32,226 bases of DNA from Dehalococcoidia bacterium (GTDB taxonomy: Bacteria > Chloroflexota > Dehalococcoidia > DSTF01 > JALHUB01): positions 1-32,226 of the forward strand of contig JALHUB010000301.1 of the NCBI GenBank assembly GCA_022865685.1, given 5' to 3'. Of the stretch, positions 3,712-32,226 are shown in pieces. Every line of letters begins with the position of its first letter. The stretch's first letter is position 1. The notes under the pieces were generated by a model. The model had not been told where the DNA came from. It searched no databases and saw only the letters and a list, made by a program, of their open reading frames with translations. Made by a program: the position numbers and the translations under genes.

Positions 3712-4117
3712 ATTCGACGCCTTCCGGCACGCCCGGCAGGCTCCAGGCGCGGCGGCCTCCGAGCGCATAGCGAATTCCCCAGCCGCCGTAGGTGAGCCAT
3801 CGATACTTCTTCGCCTCTACGGACTGGATCGCTGCAAGCGGAAGCGTCCTTCGGAGCATGCCGAAGGCGAACCGCAGCTCCTCATCGCTCACCGCAATTC
3901 GGAGGTATCGAAACGAGAAGAAGACGAAGACTAGCAGCGCACCCACAAGCGCCATGAACGGATAGTAGAGGGCATACGTCTGCCAGCCTACCTGCCCGGT
4001 CGCAGCGGACACCGCGACCCCTGCCACGAGCGCAGCCACCCCGAACAGGATGACAGCCTGAAGCCACAAGGGCGCAGGCACTTCCTCCTGGTACCGCAGC
4101 GGCGAGCTTGCCTTCAT
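3623..4117 (-). CDS. Membrane protein, two N-terminal TM helices plus a bacterial PH-like domain (DUF3093/DUF6141-like)
   Basis: Two hydrophobic helices, then a YGGWGIR motif and a C-terminal VSSRSPELLAEAV; RBS GAGGA. Confidence 0.75.
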   Translation of the reverse strand: MKASSPLRYQEEVPAPLWLQAVILFGVAALVAGVAVSAATGQVGWQTYALYYPFMALVGALLVFVFFSFRYLRIAVSDEELRFAFGMLRRTLPLAAIQSVEAKKYRWLTYGGWGIRYALGGRRAWSLPGVPEGVEFTLAEGTRVRRYFVSSRSPELLAEAVRGR

Positions 4118-4831: not shown

Positions 4832-6220
4832 CTAGACTCTCTTTGTCTTCCAGCGACCGCCCGCGAATCGGAGCCATATGAGGCCCGCGCGCACGTTCTG
4901 CTCCAGGACCGCACCGGCCCACGCGCCCGCCGGTCCCCAGCCGACGACGTGACTGAAGATGAAGGCGGCGGGAATGCGCACTGTCCAGGCCGTGAAAGTG
5001 AGCACGCCCAGGACGTAGCGGACGTCGCCGGCGCCGCGCAGGGTGCCCGAGAGCGCCATGCCCATTCCCATCATCGGGAAGGCGAGGGCGAAGACGCGCA
5101 GGCAGCGCGAGCCGATGTCGATGACCTCCGGGTCGTTCACGAACAGACCGACCATCTGCGGCGCGAAAAGTAGCACCAGCACACCCAGCCCGACCATCGT
5201 GATTAGCGCCCACTTTCGCGTTTCCTTGCCCGTTCGCTCGGCGAGGTCGGGCCGGCCCGCGCCCAGCGATTGCCCGACGACGGCCGTGCCCGCTGTCCCC
5301 AGGGCGAATCCGGGTACCTGCGCGATGTCGAGGGCGCGGAGCGCGATCGCGTGCGCTGCTGCTGCGGCGGTGCCAAAGTCGGTGATCAGGCGCGAGTAGA
5401 CGAGGAAGGCGAGGTTGAACTGAAGCTCCTCCAGACCAACGGGAATAGCGATATTAAGAAGCCGTCGCGCTTCGTCTCGGCCGAAGTGCAGCGCCTGCAG
5501 CGGGCGAAAGAGGATCGGGCCGTCGCCCCGGACCAGCACGCCGACGGCAATGAGCGCACCGGCAACACCGGCGCTGGCGATCCCGGCGCCTGCGGCTGCC
5601 GCTCCCAGCTTCGGCAGGCCGAAGACACCGCTGATCAGCAAGAAAGCCACAACGCCGTTGACGACGTTGGACACCATTATGACCAGCATCGGCGTCCTTG
5701 TGTCTCCGACGCCGCGCAGACAGCCGTTGGCCGCGAACATCAACACCATGAAGGGCATTCCCAGCGAGGTGACGCGCATGTAGTCGACGCCCGGGCCGAG
5801 CACGCCCTCTCGCGCCGCCATGAGCTGCATTAGCTGATGGGCCGCTACAACGAGGAAGAGCGAAACCGCCAGACCCCAAAGGAAAGCGAAGGTCAGGGAG
5901 GCGCGGACCGATCGTTGCAGGTCGTCGAGCGCCCGCGCGCCGGCGCTGTGGGCGACGACTATCGTCGAGCCGACGTTCACGCCCCAGGCGCCCGACAGGG
6001 GCAGCCAGAGCAGCAGTCCCGCGATACCGATAGCGGCCACGCCGTCGGAGCCGACGTACCTGCCGACAAGGACGGCGTCGACGATGCCGATGGCGGTTGT
6101 CGACAGGCGCTCGGCCACGAGCGGAGCGGAGAGACGGAGGATCGTACCGGTCAGCCGCTCTTCCCGCAAGTCAATGCCGATAGCTTCTTCGGCGCCGAGG
6201 GGTATGCCTTCGGAGGTCAA
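4832..6220 (-). CDS. MATE family efflux transporter
   Basis: About 12 TM helices; GCLRGVGDTRTPM, VGQSLGAG and LRGAGD motifs; TTG start. Confidence 0.93.
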   Translation of the reverse strand: MTSEGIPLGAEEAIGIDLREERLTGTILRLSAPLVAERLSTTAIGIVDAVLVGRYVGSDGVAAIGIAGLLLWLPLSGAWGVNVGSTIVVAHSAGARALDDLQRSVRASLTFAFLWGLAVSLFLVVAAHQLMQLMAAREGVLGPGVDYMRVTSLGMPFMVLMFAANGCLRGVGDTRTPMLVIMVSNVVNGVVAFLLISGVFGLPKLGAAAAGAGIASAGVAGALIAVGVLVRGDGPILFRPLQALHFGRDEARRLLNIAIPVGLEELQFNLAFLVYSRLITDFGTAAAAAHAIALRALDIAQVPGFALGTAGTAVVGQSLGAGRPDLAERTGKETRKWALITMVGLGVLVLLFAPQMVGLFVNDPEVIDIGSRCLRVFALAFPMMGMGMALSGTLRGAGDVRYVLGVLTFTAWTVRIPAAFIFSHVVGWGPAGAWAGAVLEQNVRAGLIWLRFAGGRWKTKRV

Positions 6221-6342
6221 CGGTGGAAAGTCCTTGTCGCTGGATGACGGATTTCCGCAATAATCGGGGACGTAGCGACAATTGTAGCGCAGGAGCTACC
6301 CCTGGCAGAAGGCCGCAGGGATTCGGTCTGCAGACGGCACGT

Positions 6343-6372
6343 TTGACAATTCCTGAGCGTCGGCACCATAAT
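6343..6372 (+). promoter_or_regulatory. Sigma70-type promoter for the CoA-transferase/thiolase operon
   Basis: TTGACA-N18-CATAAT. Confidence 0.6.
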
Positions 6373-6493
6373 TCGCTTGCCGCGGCCTCGGGAGGCGCTG
6401 AAGGCATCGGCCAAACATGACCCGAGGACGCCATTTCGACTATCCACGACCGAAGGCCCGGCCGCCCAGGCGTATCAGGGAGGTAAGAACAAG

Positions 6494-7462
6494 ATGCAGG
6501 TACTGGCTTCCGGGACGGGCGAGTTCAAGCCACCAAACCCCGACGAGATGCGAAGCTGGGTGCGCGAACACAAGGTGCGCGCGCCCGTGGACAAGGTGAT
6601 GACGGAGCACGAGGCGGTATCCCGCTTCGTCGACGACGGCGACTACATGGCATACGACATGAACATCGCCGCCAGAGGGCCCGTGTCGCTCTACCGCGAG
6701 ATCATTCGGCAGAAAAAGCGGGACCTCTGGATTGCCGCCAAGTTTAGCTGGGCGGACACGACCCTGCTGGTGGCCGGCGGCTGCGTGAACAAGGTCGACG
6801 TTGGCTGGATGGAGACGGGCGCGATCATAAACAACGCCCTGCGCGAAGACCGGCTCAAGTTCATCGAGTGGACGAACGGCGCTCTGTCCTATCGATTGCT
6901 GGCGGGCGCGCTGGGCGTGCCCTTCCTGCCGATGCGTTACGTCGGCGGCACGGACGTCTTTGAGAAGTCTGGCGCCAAGCTCGTCGAGGACCCGTACACC
7001 GGGCAGCCCATCGTGCTGGTGCCGGCTCTGAACCCGGACGTCGGCCTGATCCACGTCCACGAGTGCGACGCATTCGGAAACGCGCGCATTTACGGCGCGG
7101 GCGTGGCGCCGCGGGAGATCGCGATGGCGTCGAGGAAGCTGATCATTTCGACGGAGCAGATAATCGGCAACGATGAGATCAGGCGAAACCCGCAGCGGAC
7201 GACGATCCCCTACTACCTGGTCGACGCGGTCGTGCTGGCGCCGTTCGGCGGCTATCCGGGGAGCGTGCCCGGCCGCTACGTCGCCGATGCGGAGAACATC
7301 CTGGAGTTCGCCTTCGCGCAGATACAGGGCACGCTGGACCAGTACCTGGAGAAGTACATCTTCAGCGTCGCTTCGCACGAGGAGATGCTTGATAAGCGGG
7401 TCGGGGCTGCCAAGCTGCTCAGGCTGACACAGGAAGAGACCGTTCGGGAGGGCTACCAATGA
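6494..7462 (+). CDS. Family I CoA-transferase subunit A (GctA/CatI-like)
   Basis: DKVMTEHEAVSRFVDDGD, AGALGVPFLP, DPYTGQPIVLVPALNPDVGLIHVH..DAFGNA, IPYYLVDAVVLAPFG; ATG 6494 with GGAGG RBS. Confidence 0.9.
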   Translation: MQVLASGTGEFKPPNPDEMRSWVREHKVRAPVDKVMTEHEAVSRFVDDGDYMAYDMNIAARGPVSLYREIIRQKKRDLWIAAKFSWADTTLLVAGGCVNKVDVGWMETGAIINNALREDRLKFIEWTNGALSYRLLAGALGVPFLPMRYVGGTDVFEKSGAKLVEDPYTGQPIVLVPALNPDVGLIHVHECDAFGNARIYGAGVAPREIAMASRKLIISTEQIIGNDEIRRNPQRTTIPYYLVDAVVLAPFGGYPGSVPGRYVADAENILEFAFAQIQGTLDQYLEKYIFSVASHEEMLDKRVGAAKLLRLTQEETVREGYQ

Positions 7463-8271
7463 CTGAGCTGACCTTCACGGACCTGGAGCAGAATATCTGC
7501 ACCATCGCCAACATGATCGAGGAGGACAAGCTCTACTTCGTGCAGATGGCGGGACCGCCGCTGTTCGCGATCCTTCTCGCGAAGCGGATGCGCACGCCCG
7601 AGGTCGGCTTTCTCGTCGAAGAGGGCGCCATAGCCCCCAGCCCCAGCTTCCCCCTGCCGCGAATGATGCTGGGCGCGGCGCGGTCGCACTACCGGTCTGT
7701 CGCCTGGGAAGGGATGAACATCGTCGACGCCCACGCGGCTCTGGGCTACGTGGACTGGGGCATACTCTCGGCGGTGCAAATAGACAAGTTCGGTAACTTC
7801 AACTCGACATTCCTGGGAAAGGACTACGACCACCCGGACAGGCGCTTCGGCGGGCCCGGCGGCGCCAACGAGATCGCTTCTTGCTGCTGGGGCACGATTA
7901 TCATGACCAAGCTGGAGAAGCGCAAGTTCGTCGAGAGGGTCGACTTCGTCTCTTCGCCCGGCTACATTGACGGCTCGCCCGGCGCGCGAGAGAAGGTGGG
8001 CCTTCCTGCGAACACTGGGCCGTACCGCGTCGTCACGGAGAGGGCGCTGTTCGGCTTCGATGAGAAGACCCACATGATGAGGCTCGATGCCATCGCCCCC
8101 TGGATAACCCTCGACGAGGTGCTGGAGCGGATGGACTTCAAGCCGCTCATCGCCGAGCCGCTGGGCGTGATGCTGCCGCCCACCGAGGAGGAACTAACGA
8201 TCATCCGCGCGGAGATCGACCCGGGAGGGTACACGCTGAACCGTGGCGAGTGGCTTACGGTGACGGTTTAG
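7459..8271 (+). CDS. Family I CoA-transferase subunit B (GctB/CatJ-like)
   Basis: ATGA overlap with subunit A; LVEEG (catalytic Glu position), QIDKFGNFNST, GPGGANEIAS, FVERVDFVSSPG, GPYRVVT. Confidence 0.9.
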   Translation: MTELTFTDLEQNICTIANMIEEDKLYFVQMAGPPLFAILLAKRMRTPEVGFLVEEGAIAPSPSFPLPRMMLGAARSHYRSVAWEGMNIVDAHAALGYVDWGILSAVQIDKFGNFNSTFLGKDYDHPDRRFGGPGGANEIASCCWGTIIMTKLEKRKFVERVDFVSSPGYIDGSPGAREKVGLPANTGPYRVVTERALFGFDEKTHMMRLDAIAPWITLDEVLERMDFKPLIAEPLGVMLPPTEEELTIIRAEIDPGGYTLNRGEWLTVTV

Positions 8272-26408: not shown

Positions 26409-27587
26409 ATGATTTTGACCCAAGGCGCTGTTCGCGTCCTGCGACGGACCGGCAAGGCGGTTGGCGTCGTCGTTGTGGTGGGCGCGCTCGCGGTCGGGCT
26501 GTGGTCAGGCGTCAGCGCCCTCAGGGGCGACGAAAACGGCGCCGCAAAGGCCGGCGGCTCTCCTCTACTTATCTATAGCGAGTTCGGCCGCAACTCCGAC
26601 ACCATCTGGGCCGCTCCGGCCGACGACCCTTCTCGTCGCAGCAGACTAACCACTATCGACCACGCTCCTGAGTACGGCGTCGTCGCCGGCCTCTCACCCG
26701 ACGCAGAGCACATCGCCTACACGGTCCTGCCTCCGGGCGGCACCGCTGCCATCGATGCGCCGGCGGAAGTCTGGCTAATGGACCGCGATGGCCGGAATCG
26801 CAAGCGTCTGGCCGCCGATGCGGACCTGCCGGTGGCGCCCGTGTGGTCGCCGGACGGCTCTGCGGTCGTCTTCCGCCGCAGCGACAACAGTGAGTCGGGC
26901 GGCCACTTCCAACTCGTCCAGGTCACGACGTTGGGCGTCAGGAGGACGCTCGTCGACACGACGGCCGGCGTCATGCCCGTCGGCTTCACTCCCGATGGGT
27001 CCCTCTACTTCGTGAGCCTCTCGACTTCCGGCACCGACCTCGGCGTCGTCTACCCGTCCGGCGGGGTAATGTCGAATGTCGCGCACCTGAGCGACGACTT
27101 CGCTCGCGACTGGCACCTTTCGCCGGACGGCACCCGATTGGCGTACCTCGCTCCTAGACAGACCACGAGCGGCGTGTCCTACGGCGCGGTAGTACTCGAT
27201 CTCGACGATGGAGCGCCTAACCAGCTCAGGGCGGCGGCCGCTCCCAGCAGTCAGGCGGACGAGTTCAACCCGATCTGGCGCCCCGATGGCACAGGAGTCA
27301 CCATCGGTCGCCTGGCGCCGAACGCCGCGGGAGGAGCGCCGGTGCTCCAGATCGCCGCGGCAGGCGGTCCGGCGGTAAGCGCGCTGGCGGCGCCGTCGCG
27401 GGGGTTCGACGTGCCCCTAGCCTGGTCGTCGGATGCCGGCTACCTGGCGGCGCGCTTCTTTGAAGGGAGCTCGGTCACAAACCCCGGCCGCAGCTGGGTG
27501 ACAGTCGTAGGCGCGGACGGCAAGCGACAGACTGTGTCGCCCAACAGCGACGTCGAGGTCATGGGATGGGTGGATAGCGGAGGATAG
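26409..27587 (+). CDS. Exported/membrane-anchored TolB-like (PD40) beta-propeller protein
   Basis: N-terminal basic plus hydrophobic segment; repeated LSPDA, PVWSPDGS, FTPDGS, LSPDGTRLAY, PIWRPDG, LAWSSDA blades. Confidence 0.82.
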   Translation: MILTQGAVRVLRRTGKAVGVVVVVGALAVGLWSGVSALRGDENGAAKAGGSPLLIYSEFGRNSDTIWAAPADDPSRRSRLTTIDHAPEYGVVAGLSPDAEHIAYTVLPPGGTAAIDAPAEVWLMDRDGRNRKRLAADADLPVAPVWSPDGSAVVFRRSDNSESGGHFQLVQVTTLGVRRTLVDTTAGVMPVGFTPDGSLYFVSLSTSGTDLGVVYPSGGVMSNVAHLSDDFARDWHLSPDGTRLAYLAPRQTTSGVSYGAVVLDLDDGAPNQLRAAAAPSSQADEFNPIWRPDGTGVTIGRLAPNAAGGAPVLQIAAAGGPAVSALAAPSRGFDVPLAWSSDAGYLAARFFEGSSVTNPGRSWVTVVGADGKRQTVSPNSDVEVMGWVDSGG

Positions 27588-27595
27588 GACGCGCG

Positions 27596-28936
27596 GTGAA
27601 GCGCTTCGCCCTCGTTGCACTCGTACTCGCCATCGCCGCCTCAGTGTCAATGGGCGAGAAGGCGCCGCGGGCCACCGCCTGCGCCTTCTCGGTTGCGCCG
27701 ACGGCGTACGAGGGTCCAAAGGACCGCTCGCTGAACCTCAAGGCGATGGACCTGGCGGCATACAACATGATCGCGCCGGGAAACACCTTCTTCGGGCTGC
27801 CGCGCATCGAGAAAGGGCTCCGGGAGAAACGCAGCAGCGTCGAGCCGGTCATCCCGCCGATCCTGCTGAAGTCGATTAGCTGGATAGAAAGCGTCACCAC
27901 CCAGACCACGCGCGATGCTCCTTTCGGCGGCATCGGACCCGCGCTCATCTCCTTCGACTGCGGCCACGGCGTGATGCAGGTGACGAGCGGTATGACAGTG
28001 CCGCTGGGCACAGACGGCTTCGCCACGCCCGACCAGCTCCTTGTGGCGACTCACTACGCGTACAACATCGCCCGCGGCGCGGTCATCCTCGCCGACAAGT
28101 GGAACGCGGCTCCGGACTACCGCCCGATAGCGGGGACCGACACCGACTCCAACCCGAGCATCGTGGAGAACTGGTATTTCGCGGTCTGGAGCTATAATGG
28201 CTTCACGGGCCCGGGCGCCAAGCGCAGTAACCACCCCATGGACCCTGTATATGGCGCCTGGCCGCGCACACCGTATAGCTGCGGCGCCGCGAACGACGGC
28301 TTCGGCCACAACCGTGGCAGCTATCCTTACCAGGAGCTGGTCTGGGGCTGCGCTACCCGGCCGCCGGTCGTCGACGGCAGACAGCTTTGGGCGCCATTTG
28401 AGCTGAGCCTCCCTGACCTGAACGACTCTCGCTGGCGCAACCCGTTGCAGCTCGCGAACTGGAAATCACCGTACGTAGGCATGGACATGCCGACGCCGCT
28501 GCCGTCGCACGTCGACGGGACACCGCAGCCTCCGACGTCGATCCTCTACTCCATCCTTGGCTTGCCGAAGCTGGGCGTGCACAAGAGCAACATCTCGATA
28601 ACCGTTAAGGATGACGGGACCGCGGAGCCTCAGGAGGTCGAGATCGGAAACGCGGGCACGGGCGTGCTGGCCTGGGGCGCCACGTCCTCGGCGTCGTGGC
28701 TAAGCGTGTCGCCGGCGGCGGGCGTGGCCATCGCCAACGACGTATATTGCAGCGCAGGCGATCAGTGCGAGCGCGACGGCAAGCTGACCTTGAGCGTGAA
28801 CCCGTCCGGGTTGCGCAGCGGCAGCCAGCGCGCCACCGTACGGGTGTATTCGCCGCAGACCAAGGATACTCAGACAATAACGGTGACTATCGCCTCGGTG
28901 GGGAAGACCGGCGTTCCGGGGATCGTCAAGAACTAG
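27596..28936 (+). CDS. Secreted protein with an SLT/lysozyme-like domain and a C-terminal BACON/Ig-like domain
   Basis: Signal peptide MKRFALVALVLAIAA; SLT-like motifs WIES, GHGVMQV, YNIARGAVIL, WYFAVWSYNG; C-terminal IGNAGTGVLAW..SSASWLSVSP..LTLSVNPSGL. Confidence 0.75.
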   Translation: MKRFALVALVLAIAASVSMGEKAPRATACAFSVAPTAYEGPKDRSLNLKAMDLAAYNMIAPGNTFFGLPRIEKGLREKRSSVEPVIPPILLKSISWIESVTTQTTRDAPFGGIGPALISFDCGHGVMQVTSGMTVPLGTDGFATPDQLLVATHYAYNIARGAVILADKWNAAPDYRPIAGTDTDSNPSIVENWYFAVWSYNGFTGPGAKRSNHPMDPVYGAWPRTPYSCGAANDGFGHNRGSYPYQELVWGCATRPPVVDGRQLWAPFELSLPDLNDSRWRNPLQLANWKSPYVGMDMPTPLPSHVDGTPQPPTSILYSILGLPKLGVHKSNISITVKDDGTAEPQEVEIGNAGTGVLAWGATSSASWLSVSPAAGVAIANDVYCSAGDQCERDGKLTLSVNPSGLRSGSQRATVRVYSPQTKDTQTITVTIASVGKTGVPGIVKN

Positions 28937-29015: not shown

Positions 29016-29504
29016 ATGTTAAGGGAACTGATAGGTTCCGTTCGCCGGAATCATGCTTTGGAGCATGCGACGATATCTATCCTGATGGGGCGGCTCGGTC
29101 CTGACACGCGACTTGTCGGTTGGGCCACTGCCAGCGGATTCTACATATACGGTAATGTCCCCAGCGAGGACGTCGAGGCGTCCGCGGAGCAGGGTCTAAG
29201 CCGTCTTCAAGCGGGAGAGTCGGTGCTGGCGGTCTCTCCGCTGTGCGGCACGAACTTGGCCGTCGCGGGAGTCCTCGCCGGACTGGCGTCGACAGTGAGC
29301 GCGGGGAATCGGAGTCGCTGGGAGCGGCTACCCGGCGTCCTACTGGCGTCGATGCTGGCCGTGCTGGCGGCGCAACCGCTGGGTCGCTGGCTGCAGAAGC
29401 ACGTGACGACAAGTCCTGACCTCCGCGACGTGGAGATAGTGGGAGTGCGCGGCAGCGGACGTCAGCGGGGGAACTACTATAAGGTAGAGACCGCACGCCG
29501 ATGA
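29016..29504 (+). CDS. DUF6391-like membrane-associated protein
   Basis: VRRNHALEHATI, GFYIYG, LAVSPLCGTN, PLGRWLQKHVTT motifs recalled for this family; strong RBS. Confidence 0.75.
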   Translation: MLRELIGSVRRNHALEHATISILMGRLGPDTRLVGWATASGFYIYGNVPSEDVEASAEQGLSRLQAGESVLAVSPLCGTNLAVAGVLAGLASTVSAGNRSRWERLPGVLLASMLAVLAAQPLGRWLQKHVTTSPDLRDVEIVGVRGSGRQRGNYYKVETARR

Positions 29505-29511
29505 GCGGAGC

Positions 29512-29587
29512 GTCCCTGTAGCTCAGAGGAAAGAGCGGCTGCCTTCTAAGCAGCGGGTCGGGGGTTCGAATCCCTCCAGGGACGCCA
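29512..29587 (+). tRNA. tRNA-Arg (anticodon TCT)
   Basis: Acceptor GTCCCTG/CAGGGAC + G + encoded CCA; D stem GCTC/GAGC; anticodon arm GCTGC-CTTCTAA-GCAGC; T arm GGGGG-TTCGAAT-CCCTC; 76 nt. Confidence 0.97.
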
Positions 29588-29795
29588 AAAGCCGCAAGTT
29601 CCACACAACGACCCCAACAAGGCGATGACAATCGTGAGGTGCGCTCGTCGAGCGCACTGATATTCTGCGCGCCGCGGGAGACAGTCGCAACGCCCCGCAG
29701 TAAGGTGCGTGTTCAAGCCTCTCCCAGGATGGACTGAGCCGATGCGACCGTGCCGTCGCGCACTCGTGGCCTGAGCCGACATAACGCACGGCCGC

Positions 29796-29823
29796 TTGAC
29801 AAGCGCTTCGCCGCAGCTATACT
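29796..29823 (+). promoter_or_regulatory. Promoter of HTH-PAS regulator copy 1
   Basis: TTGACA-N16-TATACT; hexamers conserved in copy 2 while the spacer differs. Confidence 0.7.
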
Positions 29824-29952
29824 TTAGGCGCTGGCATCTCGCGCCTGACCATCCCCGCTTGCCGATGCCGCCAACAGGGAGGTTGCGCGGATGCATGTTG
29901 CCGCTGTCCCGCCACTCCAACCCTGTGCCGCTGCGTCCTCATCGGAGGCGAC

Positions 29953-30501
29953 GTGAAAAGCGATGGGAAGTGGGACAAGCTCGACCCCCGCGAGCGGCAA
30001 ATCGCTGAGCTCCTGCTGCAGGGGAAGAGCAACGCGGCTATCTGCGCAGAGGTCTTCCTATCCAGAGCACGCGTTCAGGACTGCATCAAGGGGATCTTGA
30101 TCAAGACGGGAGCAGACAGCACGAGAGGCGCTATCGCTCTGCTCGTTGGGGAGAGGGAGACCCTATCCCTGCTCCGCGTGCTGGAGCAAGCGTCAGACGG
30201 TGTGATAATCATACAAGATCGACTTGTGAAGTTCGCCAATAGGGCCATGGAATCGATCCACGAGTATGAACCCAACGGAATGACGGGGAAGTACTTCTTA
30301 GACCTGATTGCTCCCGCATCCAGGGATGTTATGAGCAAGCGTTATGAACTGAGAGTGCAGGGTGAGTCTGTTCCTACCACCTATGCGATCAGAATCCTGT
30401 GCAAGGGCGGGCAAGAGAAGGACGCAATGATAGCCAGCGCAGGCCAGATCAGCTACTGCGGCAGGCCTGCCATCCTGGGGATTGTAGTCGAGCGCATATG
30501 A
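29953..30501 (+). CDS. Transcriptional regulator, N-terminal LuxR-type HTH + C-terminal PAS domain (copy 1)
   Basis: LDPRERQIAELLLQGKSNAAICAEVFLSRARVQDCIKGILIKTG (GerE/LuxR HTH pattern); VLEQASDGVIIIQDRLVKFANRA..GKYFLDLIAP..YCGRPAILGIV (PAS); RBS GGAGG, GTG start. Confidence 0.88.
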   Translation: MKSDGKWDKLDPRERQIAELLLQGKSNAAICAEVFLSRARVQDCIKGILIKTGADSTRGAIALLVGERETLSLLRVLEQASDGVIIIQDRLVKFANRAMESIHEYEPNGMTGKYFLDLIAPASRDVMSKRYELRVQGESVPTTYAIRILCKGGQEKDAMIASAGQISYCGRPAILGIVVERI

Positions 30502-30631
30502 GAGGAACAAGCTCGGGCTCAGTATCCTGTCCTAGACATTTGTCTCATTCTTCGACTTCCTTCGGTAAGGGAATCTGGAGAGACCTTGGCGTCGCGCACT
30601 CGTGGCCTGAGTCGACATAACGCACACCCGC

Positions 30632-30659
30632 TTGACTAGTGCCTCGCCGGAGCTATACT
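30632..30659 (+). promoter_or_regulatory. Promoter of HTH-PAS regulator copy 2
   Basis: TTGACT-N16-TATACT. Confidence 0.7.
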
Positions 30660-30786
30660 TAGCGCGTTGGCATCTCGCTCCTGACTATCCCCGCTTGCCG
30701 ATGCCGCCAACAGGAAGGTTGCGGATGCATCTTGCCGCTGTCCTGCTACTCCAACCCTGTGCCGGCGTGTGCTCATCGGAGGCGAC

Positions 30787-31335
30787 GTGATAAGCGACTG
30801 GAAGTGGGACACGCTCGACCCCACTGAGCGGCACATCGCTGAGCTTCTAGTGCAGGGGAAGAGCAACGTGGCCATCTGTGCAGAGGTCTTCCTATGCAGA
30901 GCACGCGTTCAGGACTGCATCAAGGGGATCTTGATCAAGACGGGAGCAGACAGCACGAGAGGCGCTATCGCTCTGCTCGTTGGGGAGAGGGAGACCCTAT
31001 CCCTACTTCGCGTGCTGGAGCAAGCGACGGACGGCGTGGTAATCATACAAGATCGACTTGTGAAGTTCGCCAATAGGGCCCTGGAAAGGATCCACTGTTA
31101 TGAACCCAACGGAATGGTGGGGATGCCCTTCGTAGAGCTGTCAGCTCCGGGATCTAGGAGCGCCACGATCAATCACTACGAACGGAGAATGCGGGGTGAG
31201 CCAGCTCCTACCAGCTATGCGATCAGAATCCTTTGCAGGGATGGGCAAGAGAAGGACGCAATGGTAGCCAGCGCGGGCCAGATCAGTTACTGCGGCAGGC
31301 CTGCCATCCTGGGGATTGTAGTCGAGCGCACATGA
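30787..31335 (+). CDS. Transcriptional regulator, N-terminal LuxR-type HTH + C-terminal PAS domain (copy 2)
   Basis: 182 aa, about 80% identical to copy 1 by manual alignment (36 differences); GTG 30787 after GGAGG. Confidence 0.88.
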   Translation: MISDWKWDTLDPTERHIAELLVQGKSNVAICAEVFLCRARVQDCIKGILIKTGADSTRGAIALLVGERETLSLLRVLEQATDGVVIIQDRLVKFANRALERIHCYEPNGMVGMPFVELSAPGSRSATINHYERRMRGEPAPTSYAIRILCRDGQEKDAMVASAGQISYCGRPAILGIVVERT

Positions 31336-31458
31336 GAGGAAAAGGCTCGGGCTCAGCATCCTGCAGACCGCTCGGTCTGTGACTGGTAGCCTCCAACATA
31401 TGTCCTAGACACTTGTCTCATTCTTTGGCTCCACTTGTCATAGAACCCCTCACTGGGA

Positions 31459-31487
31459 TTGACAAGCCGTGCGGCGCCTTCTACGTT
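31459..31487 (+). promoter_or_regulatory. Putative promoter into the non-coding structured region
   Basis: TTGACA-N17-TACGTT; shares TTGACAAGC with the copy-1 promoter. Confidence 0.45.
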
Positions 31488-31996
31488 TGGGGTGGGTCCA
31501 GCGCTTGCGTTGGAATCGCGCGGGAGACGCCCCCAAGGAAGCAGCCTGGCAAGGATGCCGTCTGCCTCCTACTGGTTGGGGTGTCTCTTCCGTGCAACAA
31601 GCGTCAACTGGTGGCCCACTCGACTTGTACTCTCCCCGCCTTGGACAGCTGTTTGCTGTCTTGACCCCGTGGCAGAGGGCATCGATGCTTGGTCGTGGTG
31701 TATCTACGACGCACGCCGCCGGCGCTGCGGCGCCCAGGCTGGGCATGAGGGCGCGCCGCAGGCCTCCTTCGAGAATGGGAAGAACCCGCCCATCGTCCTC
31801 TGCCGCCATCATGACTGTTGCGGTGAGGATGCTGTTCCCGTTCCCGTCGGGGGCCGGCGCGGCGCGCCGTTGAGGCTAGGCGGGCTTCCCGCGTGGTTAA
31901 CAATAGGGGTCCGGCATTTCCGCGATGGGCGGCAGCGCGAAGAAGCGCGCGGTGTGCCGCCGGACAAACAATAAATGTGAAGGGGGAGCACAAACA

Positions 31997-32226
31997 ATGA
32001 AAAAGATGCGTTGGATAGCAATGGTGGTGGTGGTGGTGGCTGTGAGCTTGTTGGGTCTGACCTCATTCGCTGCGCGCACCAGTGCGGGCAGCATTCTGGC
32101 GGTGGTTGGGCCAATCTTCATCCCTGCCCAAGATGATATCGGCACCTGTAATAATACTTGGGCTGTGGACAGCTTCAACAAGACCTATACGATTACCAAC
32201 GTCAGCGGGAACACGTACGATATACA
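31997..32226 (+). CDS. Secreted hypothetical protein, truncated by the window edge
   Basis: Not in the ORF track. RBS GGGGGAG; MKKMRWIAMVVVVVAVSLLGLTSFAARTSA signal peptide, then GSILAVVGPIFIPAQDDIGTCNNTWAVDSFNKTYTITNVSGNTYDI, open to the end. Confidence 0.8.
   Translation, partial: MKKMRWIAMVVVVVAVSLLGLTSFAARTSAGSILAVVGPIFIPAQDDIGTCNNTWAVDSFNKTYTITNVSGNTYDI

Follow-up and report, generated by a model that had tools for sequence, protein, structure and literature searches.

Two tandem HTH-PAS genes near the end of a Dehalococcoidia contig

The subject of this study is a pair of neighboring genes close to the right end of contig JALHUB010000301.1 of an uncultured soil/sediment Dehalococcoidia bacterium, whose analyzed stretch of 32,226 nucleotides (nt) is referred to as the window throughout. 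The genome is a metagenome bin of 2.06 Mb in 329 contigs with a completeness of 92.6%, and the whole assembly contains just these two copies of the gene family in question. An earlier note, made from the bare sequence, had described two cassettes of around 835 bp that each encode a 182-residue protein with a LuxR-type helix-turn-helix (HTH) domain first and a PAS domain last, and this layout is confirmed by open reading frames (ORFs), direct repeats, and Pfam matches (Table 1). We are moderately confident in an overall explanation under which the two genes are true tandem paralogues of a compact family of one-component regulators of about 182 residues.

Copy 1 was called as an ORF of 182 codons with a GTG start (29953..30501) and copy 2 as an ORF at 30769..31335, inside which an in-frame GTG at 30787 yields a 182-residue protein that is collinear with copy 1 and with 182-residue homologues. 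Two pairs of direct repeats, 29746-29887 with 30582-30723 (89% identity) and 29887-30186 with 30721-31020 (92% identity), relate the cassettes at a spacing of 834-836 nt. A 30-nt repeat past each stop codon recurs at a distance of 873 nt, so that cassette 2 has a 39-nt insertion after its gene. Tandem Repeats Finder returned 0 rows with a longest period of 500, which is below the 835-bp unit. The G+C content over the two cassettes (30000-31400) is 0.53-0.60, compared with 0.63-0.70 in the upstream flank.

Table 1. Features of the locus, in window coordinates
Feature	Position	Strand	Evidence or remark
tRNA-Arg(TCT), conserved left neighbor	29512..29587	+	ARAGORN; Rfam tRNA, 69.4 bits
Cassette 1: promoter, leader with upstream ORF, copy 1 gene, palindrome	29746..30581	+	direct repeats D1, D2, D4
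Sigma-70-like promoter of copy 1, TTGACA-16-TATACT	29796..29823	+	promoter scan, 11/12 matches
21-codon leader ORF of copy 1; strong Shine-Dalgarno sequence; TGA overlaps copy 1 GTG (GTGA)	29891..29956	+	sequence, alignment
Copy 1, 182-residue HTH(LuxR/GerE)-PAS regulator	29953..30501	+	ORF, Pfam/TIGR, AlphaFold2
Copy 1, HTH, residues 10-56	29980-30120
Copy 1, α4/linker, residues 57-78	30121-30186
Copy 1, PAS, residues 83-180	30199-30492
Putative recombination breakpoint interval, nt 110-163 of the coding sequence	30062..30115	+	gene-A type before it, gene-B type after it
108-nt run identical to 30897-31004 of copy 2	30063..30170	+	recognition helix, start of helix α4
Variable PAS patch of copy 1, residues 104-152 (Dα-Eα-Fα, FG loop, start of Gβ)	30262..30408	+	copy 2 counterpart 31096-31242
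Palindrome AGACATTTGTCT after copy 1	30534..30545	.	no site in the 2.06-Mb assembly besides this one and that after copy 2
Cassette 2: duplicated upstream region, copy 2 gene, palindrome	30582..31430	+	direct repeats
Sigma-70-like promoter of copy 2, TTGACT-16-TATACT	30632..30659	+	promoter scan, 10/12 matches
21-codon leader ORF of copy 2; TGA overlaps GTG at 30787	30725..30790	+	sequence, alignment
Copy 2, 182-residue HTH-PAS regulator	30787..31335	+	99.5% nt identity to second gene of contig L027
Palindrome AGACACTTGTCT after copy 2, candidate operator	31407..31418	.	genome-wide site search
Promoter-like element TTGACA-17-TACGTT, 40 nt past the palindrome	31459..31487	+	conserved across loci; weak -10, not called by generic scan
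Start of conserved, apparently structured leader past the promoter-like element	31494..31580	+	alignments, RNAalifold
5′ end of secreted repeat-protein gene, off contig end	31997..32226	+	ORF

Copy 1 matches the Pfam families GerE at residues 10-61 (25.7 bits, cut-off 23.5) and PAS at residues 75-149 (26.0 bits, cut-off 22.6), and the TIGR00229 sensory_box model scores 34.9 bits in copy 1 and 35.1 bits in copy 2 against a cut-off of 22.9. A profile of the family also matches the GerE structure 1fse (E = 2.7e-6) as well as the DNA-binding domains of NarL and DevR. The AlphaFold2 model based on a 53-row alignment (predicted local distance difference test, pLDDT, 89.8; predicted template modeling score, pTM, 0.76) has helices at residues 12-22, 27-34, and 38-52 and a long one at 57-78, i.e., a tetrahelical HTH with the recognition helix in third place, followed by a PAS fold with helix Fα at 121-135 that Foldseek matches to many PAS structures with a probability of 1.00. 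The NCBIfam model of PedR, a small redox-sensitive LuxR-type regulator, was rejected as an assignment (19.1 bits against a cut-off of 120). Three cysteines are kept nearly throughout the family, Cys31 in HTH helix 2 (126/136 members), Cys44 in the recognition helix (117/136), and Cys150 in PAS strand Gβ (121/136), encoded in copy 1 at 30043-30045, 30082-30084, and 30400-30402, respectively; they may constitute a thiol or redox switch.

The duplication was checked with Logan contigs, not raw reads, of sequencing runs that we label X (fetched loci are labeled L, genomes G, and proteins P). Of the 20 run entries with window sequence, none is recorded as RNA. In the best-matching run, X1, which contains 0.91 of the sampled words and may be the source sample, one contig agrees with 30467-30924 at 0 differences and spans the 3′ end of copy 1, the spacer, and the 5′ end of copy 2. 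The cassette junction (30581/30582) is bridged in three runs and present in contigs of two other studies (X5, 30528-30773, 1 difference; X3, 30618-30768, 0 differences). Depth in X1 is 12.5 on the shared segment 30092-30246, around twice that of pieces found only in copy 1 (7.5-8.8) or only in copy 2 (5.4), and holes in contig cover such as 30925-31050 in X1 fall on sequence common to both copies and are uninformative. Given a single shared segment, the tandem order of the window would be the one linear arrangement in which each unique piece is used once.

The earlier note had named strain mixing during assembly as an outcome that would undermine the duplication, and the bridging contigs and the doubled depth do not support it. 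We consider it extremely improbable that the tandem order or the mosaic described below is an assembly artefact created by strain mixing or by a collapse or jump at the shared 108-nt segment, and family arrays also occur on long contigs elsewhere, e.g., the 156-kb contig L018. What speaks for such an artefact is the origin of the genome from a metagenome bin in hundreds of pieces, the coexistence of strains in the runs, as numerous variant letters in X2, X3, and X5 at higher depth show, and the use of contigs as the sole evidence.

Signs of recombination and the distribution of differences

Copies 1 and 2 are distinguished by 36 of their 182 residues and by 66 of 549 nt (BLASTP, 145/179 identical). 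Residues 38-80 are the same in both, the longest identical run covers 108 nt (nt 111-218 of the coding sequence [CDS]; 30063-30170 and 30897-31004 of the window), and 19 of the 36 differences fall into residues 111-143; relative to copy 1, copy 2 has the exchanges S37C, E104C, and R130H. Every figure that the earlier note had given came out the same in our recount. Synonymous divergence (dS) between the copies amounts to 0.30, 0.035, 0.14, 0.42, and 0.165 over residues 1-36, 37-73, 74-110, 111-143, and 144-182, respectively. For residues 111-143, nonsynonymous divergence (dN) is 0.40 and dN/dS is 0.96; over the variable patch as delimited in Table 1, dS is 0.38 and dN is 0.30.

Across 136 distinct sequences of the family, column entropy has a mean of 0.47 bits in the recognition helix (residues 38-52) and 1.70 bits in Fα, and among internal positions variability peaks at 126-130 (2.4-3.1 bits), a level exceeded only by the two C-terminal residues. 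In the profile alignment to the solved structure of FG214, a haem-binding regulator to which we return below, the pocket residues His156, His159, Met172, and His175 of that protein align to residues 127, 130, 140, and 143. All four positions differ between copies 1 and 2 (127 M/T, 130 R/H, 140 V/A, and 143 T/S). Together with the concentration of differences in Eα-Fα, this bears out the earlier proposal that the variable residues map to the pocket, and the copies appear to differ in the Eα/Fα residues that line it.

Contigs L025, L027, and L031 share synteny with the window, and in each a “gene A” and then a “gene B” follow the same tRNA-Arg. Copy 2 has 99.5% nucleotide identity to gene B of L027 (L027_2). 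For copy 1, identity to gene A (L025_1) is 100% over nt 1-120, and identity to gene B is 97-100% over nt 120-240. At informative sites before nt 110, copy 1 matches gene A in 15 of 15 cases, and beyond that point it agrees with copy 2 at 63 sites and with A at 14, with the best breakpoint after nt 110 (Fisher p = 1.2e-9, uncorrected for the approximately 500 breakpoints tried). The site pattern thus switches from A to B exactly where the 108-nt identical run starts. As judged from these alignments, copy 1 looks like a chimera that carries the 5′ end of gene A and gene-B sequence from the recognition helix on.

The variable patch has a history of its own. Of the differences between the B alleles L025_2 and L027_2, 34 fall within the 147 nt of CDS nt 310-456 and 8 within 398 nt elsewhere (p = 3e-14), and copy 1 follows L025_2 at 28 of the 34 informative patch sites. 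Since dS is high in the patch and the copy 1 version is found in an allele from another sample, the block seems to have been imported or exchanged; it fits an imported or long-maintained block and not a burst of positive selection in place. Positive selection in place was accordingly rejected as the sole cause of the block, with dS high there too. A simple in-situ diversification of the PAS block does not hold up against its dS of 0.42, its dN/dS of 0.96, and the presence of the copy 1 version in another sample's allele.

The segment 30582-30773, a duplicate of the region upstream of copy 1, is missing from L025, L027, and L031, where the gap between A and B is 120 nt. Two or more recombination events therefore lie between the window and these contigs. 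In L033 (1774-2707), a close relative of the window array, the first gene aligns from residue 40, directly after a piece of the upstream region, and looks like a 5′-truncated copy.

A simpler history would be a plain recent tandem duplication followed by point mutation, with purifying selection on the HTH, relaxed or diversifying evolution of the PAS domain, and no conversion. We regard it as very unlikely that this suffices. It leaves unaccounted for that the first 110 nt of copy 1 correspond to gene A at every informative site and the remainder follows gene B, that copy 2 nearly equals L027_2 but is preceded, upstream of 30774, by sequence with no relation to the L027 spacer, and that dS in the patch is high besides dN, with the copy 1 version in an allele of another sample; other arrays moreover combine an HTH dS of 0.02 with a PAS dS of 0.77-1.59 (see below). 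Plain duplication would, on the other hand, be in keeping with the family-wide conservation of the HTH seen in the entropies above and with the upstream noncoding parts of the cassettes, which are identical at 182/207 positions and thus similar to the coding sequence. Our recombination scenario is further weakened by three points: heterogeneity of dS is statistically weak when taken from the two window copies alone (our own rough chi-square gives p of about 0.1), a dN/dS of around 1 in the patch also fits relaxed constraint, and the outgroup contigs on which the case rests are metagenomic and hence population assemblies.

The earlier note had ascribed the uniform HTH to gene conversion or selection. 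Both parts of this proposal find support, conversion in the breakpoint at CDS nt 110-163 and selection in the low family entropy, with the restriction that conversion covers part of the HTH half.

Much of the comparative evidence comes from other members of the family. Out of 237 candidates of a word-indexed search, 103 proteins reached E ≤ 1e-3, almost all with a length of 179-209 residues; P0002, P0004, P0005, and P0006 have 301-307 residues and a second PAS domain after the first (HTH-PAS-PAS). GerE is recognized in 45 and PAS in 44 of the 53 aligned members (E ≤ 1e-3). Record titles name Dehalococcoidia or “uncultured Chloroflexia” metagenome-assembled genomes, and the family has so far been seen in Dehalococcoidia of soil, peat, and sediment. 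Within a set of 41 genomes composed of the window's own and its relatives, 12 have a match at E ≤ 1e-10, of which 4 are PAS-only matches in large proteins, and 8 carry full-length genes (G000, G001, G003, G005, G006, G017, G019, and G023). The best 150 matches of a profile search against 1.84 billion representatives are mostly multi-PAS proteins and include as family members P0083, P0095, and P0116 at full length and P0248 in part. The ESM Atlas holds many GerE+PAS clusters of 180-213 residues, mostly from Pseudomonadota and listed without domain order.

Besides the window, 17 of 63 fetched loci (L014-L076) hold 2-4 copies, nearly all adjacent, and many of the single-copy loci are contigs shorter than 2.5 kb and thus too short to judge array size. 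Within arrays, dS was compared between an HTH half (residues 1-70) and a PAS half (residues 81-182), giving 0.02 vs 0.77 in L038, 0.02 vs 1.59 in L045 (copies 4.2 kb apart), 0.18 vs 0.79 in L019, 0.44 vs 0.86 in L030, and 0.78 vs 2.73 between copies 2 and 3 of L048. Other arrays display little contrast, and in L020 and between copies 1 and 2 of L048 the direction is reversed. Nucleotide identity within arrays is mostly 93-100% over codons 1-80 and then 43-87%, with its minimum usually in codons 101-160.

As a control, 1751 between-locus pairs, after removal of identical sequences and partial genes and with the fused L049 ORF cut, gave a median of 0.88 for synonymous differences in the HTH half relative to the PAS half; silent sites thus do not evolve slowly in the HTH as a rule. 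Pairs between loci that combine a low HTH with a high PAS value make up 48 of 1443 with a proportion of synonymous differences (pS) above 0.4 in the PAS half, and all of them represent two PAS types shared by L038 and L045. In trees made with FastTree on short alignments and read for their topology, array mates (L038, L019, L030, and copies 3 and 4 of L034) are joined by the HTH and split by the PAS half, and the nearest neighbor of copy 1 changes from L025_1 for the HTH to L025_2 for the PAS half. These patterns suggest homogenization of the 5′ half in at least three lineages, i.e., the window clade, the L038/L045 clade, and L019.

Individual arrays have peculiarities of their own. On the 1.6-kb contig L049 (184-1407), two family genes are fused in frame to a 408-codon HTH-PAS-HTH-PAS ORF, which could be real or a sequencing error. 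Frameshift-split members in L018 (3382-3904) and L067 (2041-2563) are probably pseudogenes, in which case arrays lose as well as gain copies. The array of L019 is followed (5834-8113) by a gene for a protein of 759 residues in which four to five PAS domains precede a GerE HTH at the C terminus, i.e., the usual domain order beside the inverted one.

Candidate operator, modeled pairing of the copies, and the downstream gene

A perfect palindrome, AGACAyTTGTCT, lies behind each of the two genes and nowhere else in the 2.06-Mb assembly, and in G001, G003, and G017 the sole palindrome of the genome likewise adjoins a family gene. The corresponding 13-mer was found in none of five relatives without the gene (5/5), which as kin are not independent. 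Allowing up to 4 mismatches of 15, we counted 38 distinct sites behind 62 genes with enough downstream sequence, usually after the last gene of the array. In related loci a conserved TTGACA-17-TAyGTT element stands behind the palindrome at a distance of 40 nt or, at five sites, 28/29 nt, two spacings that are one helical turn apart; the distance is 40 nt at nine sites and 41 nt at one, and eight more were set to 40 nt by eye after a spurious TTGAC had first been caught. We take the palindrome as the likely DNA target of the regulators.

Beyond the promoter-like element, a conserved leader extends over 31494-31720 of the window, with counterparts in L030 (from 5696), L038 (from 5712), L044 (from 4566), and others; a long hairpin pairs a Shine-Dalgarno-like with an anti-Shine-Dalgarno-like stretch. 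RNAalifold assigns -22.97 kcal/mol to this leader, with compensatory changes in 5 of 24 pairs. The gene that follows is cut off by the contig end inside a repeat and continues in the near-identical contig L029 (1128-2024) as a gene for a secreted protein with tandem repeats of about 190 residues. Elsewhere the downstream gene encodes a LamG protein (L025, L030, and L048), a beta-helix protein (L044 and L018), or, as in the window and L029, a tandem-repeat protein. These secreted proteins are not homologous between strains, and giant proteins of different descent at the same position mark it as a strain-variable surface-protein site.

A promoter scan called 4 sites against 1.1 expected, and many first genes of the clade have a promoter around 155 nt ahead of the start codon. 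About 60 nt of conserved leader separate each window promoter from the Shine-Dalgarno sequence of the 21-codon leader ORF. This Pro/Ala-rich ORF precedes 15 listed genes of the GTG-start clade and is not found ahead of the ATG-start clades or of second genes with short spacers, which suggests translational coupling or attenuation. RNAalifold gave a weak consensus for the leaders upstream of the genes (-5.35 kcal/mol, double changes in 2 of 16 pairs), and part of the leader ORF might mask the main Shine-Dalgarno sequence. An Rfam scan of 29400-32226 at E ≤ 1 found the tRNA only, with no match for either the gene leaders or the downstream leader.

The heterodimer of copies 1 and 2 was modeled with an interaction prediction score from aligned errors (ipSAE) of 0.74, compared with 0.41 for the best control. 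That mark is reached by 116 of 157 solved complexes and by 2 of 215 mismatched pairs, an approximate calibration for which our own alignments were used. The dimer runs agree in at least 97% of contacts with a partner pLDDT of at least 87, and the symmetric interface comprises residues 21-26, 54-82, 142-143, 161-167, and 175-179. Just 3 of the 36 differing residues (22, 81, and 143) belong to the 42 residues of this interface. The pairing that the earlier note had envisaged thus passes its controls, as a model. Given a near-invariant recognition helix and a nearly identical modeled interface, the two copies should read the same DNA and should be able to pair with each other.

In the explanation that we favor, a signal in the PAS pocket would shift the protein to a dimer via helix α4 and the PAS β-sheet, and this dimer would bind an inverted repeat, both by analogy with FG214. 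The near-invariant recognition helix would let both copies read the same DNA. Purifying selection and recombination between array members would keep the HTH half uniform, and the variable PAS patch would be exchanged as a block between alleles. The target would be the palindrome after copy 2, situated 40 nt ahead of the -35 element of a weak promoter that would drive the structured leader and the gene for the secreted repeat or giant surface protein.

Several points limit this picture or weigh against it. DNA binding, dimerization, ligand sensing, and control of the downstream gene are predictions for both copies, made from sequences and models. Both Pfam domains of copy 2 score below their cut-offs (GerE 15.8 bits, PAS 18.2 bits), and the success of the dimer model may partly reflect the known dimers of GerE/NarL-type and PAS domains. 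As to the operator, the two exact palindromes of G006 are not close to its two family genes, G019 and G005 carry degenerate palindromes only, and in G003 (L015) the palindrome is located upstream of the gene and not downstream. The first palindrome of the window (30534) has no TTGACA within 90 nt; its 40-nt position is occupied by TTGGCG, exactly at the cassette junction. Counts of co-occurrence between palindrome and gene are also inflated by the relatedness of the genomes.

The palindrome might, moreover, belong to the 3′ end of the transcript as a weak terminator-like or RNA stability element, with the regulators acting elsewhere. The element is followed by a T-rich tract, shows better conservation in its right half than in its left, and travels with the cassette, so that co-occurrence with the gene is expected anyway. 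We think this unlikely but worth keeping in mind. Its stem would have just 4-5 bp (the palindrome arms measure 5 bp) with a loop of 2-4 nt, a generic terminator scan found 0 sites, the sequence itself and not pairing alone is kept across proteins that are 50-60% identical, and the two distance classes to the -35 element, 40 and 28/29 nt, fit a protein site phased with RNA polymerase.

A bolder extension, speculative and rather unlikely when taken as a whole, would be a recombination-driven system with a shared reader and a swappable sensor. Conversion would keep the reader/dimer module uniform, the Eα-Fα block would be shuffled among paralogues and strains, and homo- and heterodimers would integrate several signals at one operator that controls a strain-variable giant surface protein via the leader. 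If true, this would be an analogue of cassette-type diversification among bacterial transcription factors.

To the left, the tRNA-Arg of Table 1 also stands ahead of the array in L025, L027, L030, L031, and L044. Before it lie genes for a DUF6391 protein of 162 residues (29016-29504), a protein of 446 residues with a BACON-like domain (27596-28936), and a PD40/beta-propeller protein of 392 residues (26409-27587), an order repeated in L030 and L044. The array was considered as a mobile element at the tRNA and rejected as such, given the tRNA-array synteny in five other contigs and a transposase-like ORF in L015 alone. There, the palindrome (3815-3826) lies upstream of the single G003 gene, with the transposase-like ORF (rve, HTH_21) downstream at 5241-5966, and this locus is probably rearranged.

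Comparison with FG214 and other known regulators

The closest solved relative of the window proteins, judged by sequence profile, is FG214 of Fimbriimonas ginsengisoli (bioRxiv 10.64898/2026.03.15.711900 = PMC13060918; PDB 10JX), which according to the available part of its description consists of an N-terminal LuxR-type HTH, a helical linker, and, at the C terminus, a PAS domain. The same source reports more than 6000 co-occurrences of PAS and LuxR domains in SMART, the vast majority in the opposite order. Its PAS domain holds haem b via His156 as the proximal and His175 or Met172 as the distal ligand, and reduction or ligand binding releases helix 4α from the PAS sheet, after which FG214 dimerizes by 4α/4α and PAS/PAS contacts and prefers inverted repeats (PMC13060918). 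The 4α helix of EL222 docks on the PAS sheet as well (PMC13060918).

In a PDB profile search, 10jx_A was the best of 20 matches (E = 4.9e-8, positions 69-160), followed among PAS matches by DosP at 4.9e-4. This comparison covers linker and PAS, as the crystal construct starts after residue 72 and leaves the HTH outside. Like FG214, the window proteins unite a tetrahelical LuxR-type HTH, an α4 linker, and, C-terminally, a PAS domain in one protein of about 200 residues, and their modeled dimer uses α4/α4 and PAS-sheet contacts as the FG214 crystal dimer does in the part of the report at hand (PMC13060918). Unlike FG214, they belong to another phylum, do not conserve the haem ligand positions, and come from a family whose tandem arrays recombine, have a palindrome of their own, and adjoin a gene for a giant secreted protein; the accessible part of PMC13060918 mentions no such array, palindrome, or secreted protein for FG214.

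The proximity to FG214 invites the idea that both proteins are haem-based redox or gas sensors exactly like it, with ligation freeing α4 for dimerization. Besides the profile match, the top Foldseek neighbors point in this direction, all being haem PAS domains (EcDOS 1s66, FixL 8js6, DosP, and FG214 10jx, the last with the highest query TM-score, TMq, of 0.55 among the matches listed), as does His130 of copy 2 at the position of FG214 His159; Fα contains at least one His in 50 of 136 family members. The axial ligands themselves are, however, missing: residues 127, 143, and 140 are M, T, and V in copy 1 and T, S, and A in copy 2. Position 127, the equivalent of His156, is His in 0/136 members, compared with 28/136 at position 130, and the eight commonest residues at position 143, the equivalent of His175, are S, T, L, R, N, G, D, and I and include no His. 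There is no His anywhere in Fα of copy 1. From these residues, canonical ligation of haem as in FG214 is unlikely, and we hold it decidedly unlikely that the window proteins sense exactly as FG214 does.

The HTH-first LuxR-PAS architecture is thus already known, with FG214, described in 2026, as its one characterized member, and the earlier note's view of an undescribed system, which by its own account would fall with a characterized family of this architecture, is no longer tenable. What is new is an uncharacterized family of FG214-like architecture that lacks the haem ligands, lives in another phylum, and forms tandem arrays. A literature search that covered few subscription journals, directed at prior descriptions of the family or of DNA-binding-domain conversion in bacterial regulator arrays, gave only the FG214 and MltR papers.

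The arrays offer a natural experiment in the modular evolution of one-component regulators, with a homogenized reader/dimer half and a mobile variable pocket helix, and they predict a shared operator, heterodimers, and different ligands. They also provide a concrete candidate operator and target in uncultured organisms whose gene regulation is almost unstudied. For sensor engineering, they could supply natural variants of a PAS pocket on a constant DNA-binding scaffold.

Other known regulators share parts of this design. EL222 (LOV-HTH) and the PAS-LuxR regulators of the PimM type from Streptomyces are one-component proteins of similar size with the same two types of domain. Unlike the window proteins, in which GerE (residues 10-61) precedes PAS (75-149), they carry the sensor first. 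Among HTH-first proteins, MmyB combines an Xre-type HTH with a fatty-acid-binding PAS-like domain, and the C-terminal domain of MltR is PAS-like. MltR of Chloroflexus aurantiacus, an MmyB-like regulator, resembles the window proteins, as far as the available part of its description goes, as a Chloroflexota regulator with the HTH ahead of a ligand-binding sensor part (PMC3406030). The HTH of the window proteins is, unlike that of MmyB-like regulators, of the LuxR/GerE type; a Pfam scan at E ≤ 1 found no Xre-type family, and the HTH matches are GerE, HTH_38, and HTH_23.

The NarL/FixJ regulators differ from the window proteins by their receiver domain; here, the protein begins 9 residues before the HTH, with the PAS domain after it, and the NarL, MadR, and MctR models match only with their C-terminal 50-60 residues, far under their cut-offs. 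NarL sites are inverted repeats of the 7-2-7 type. With the GerE/NarL-type LuxR HTH domains the window proteins share their profile matches, and their candidate site can be read in the same 7-2-7 format, as CTAGACA-CT-TGTCTCA.

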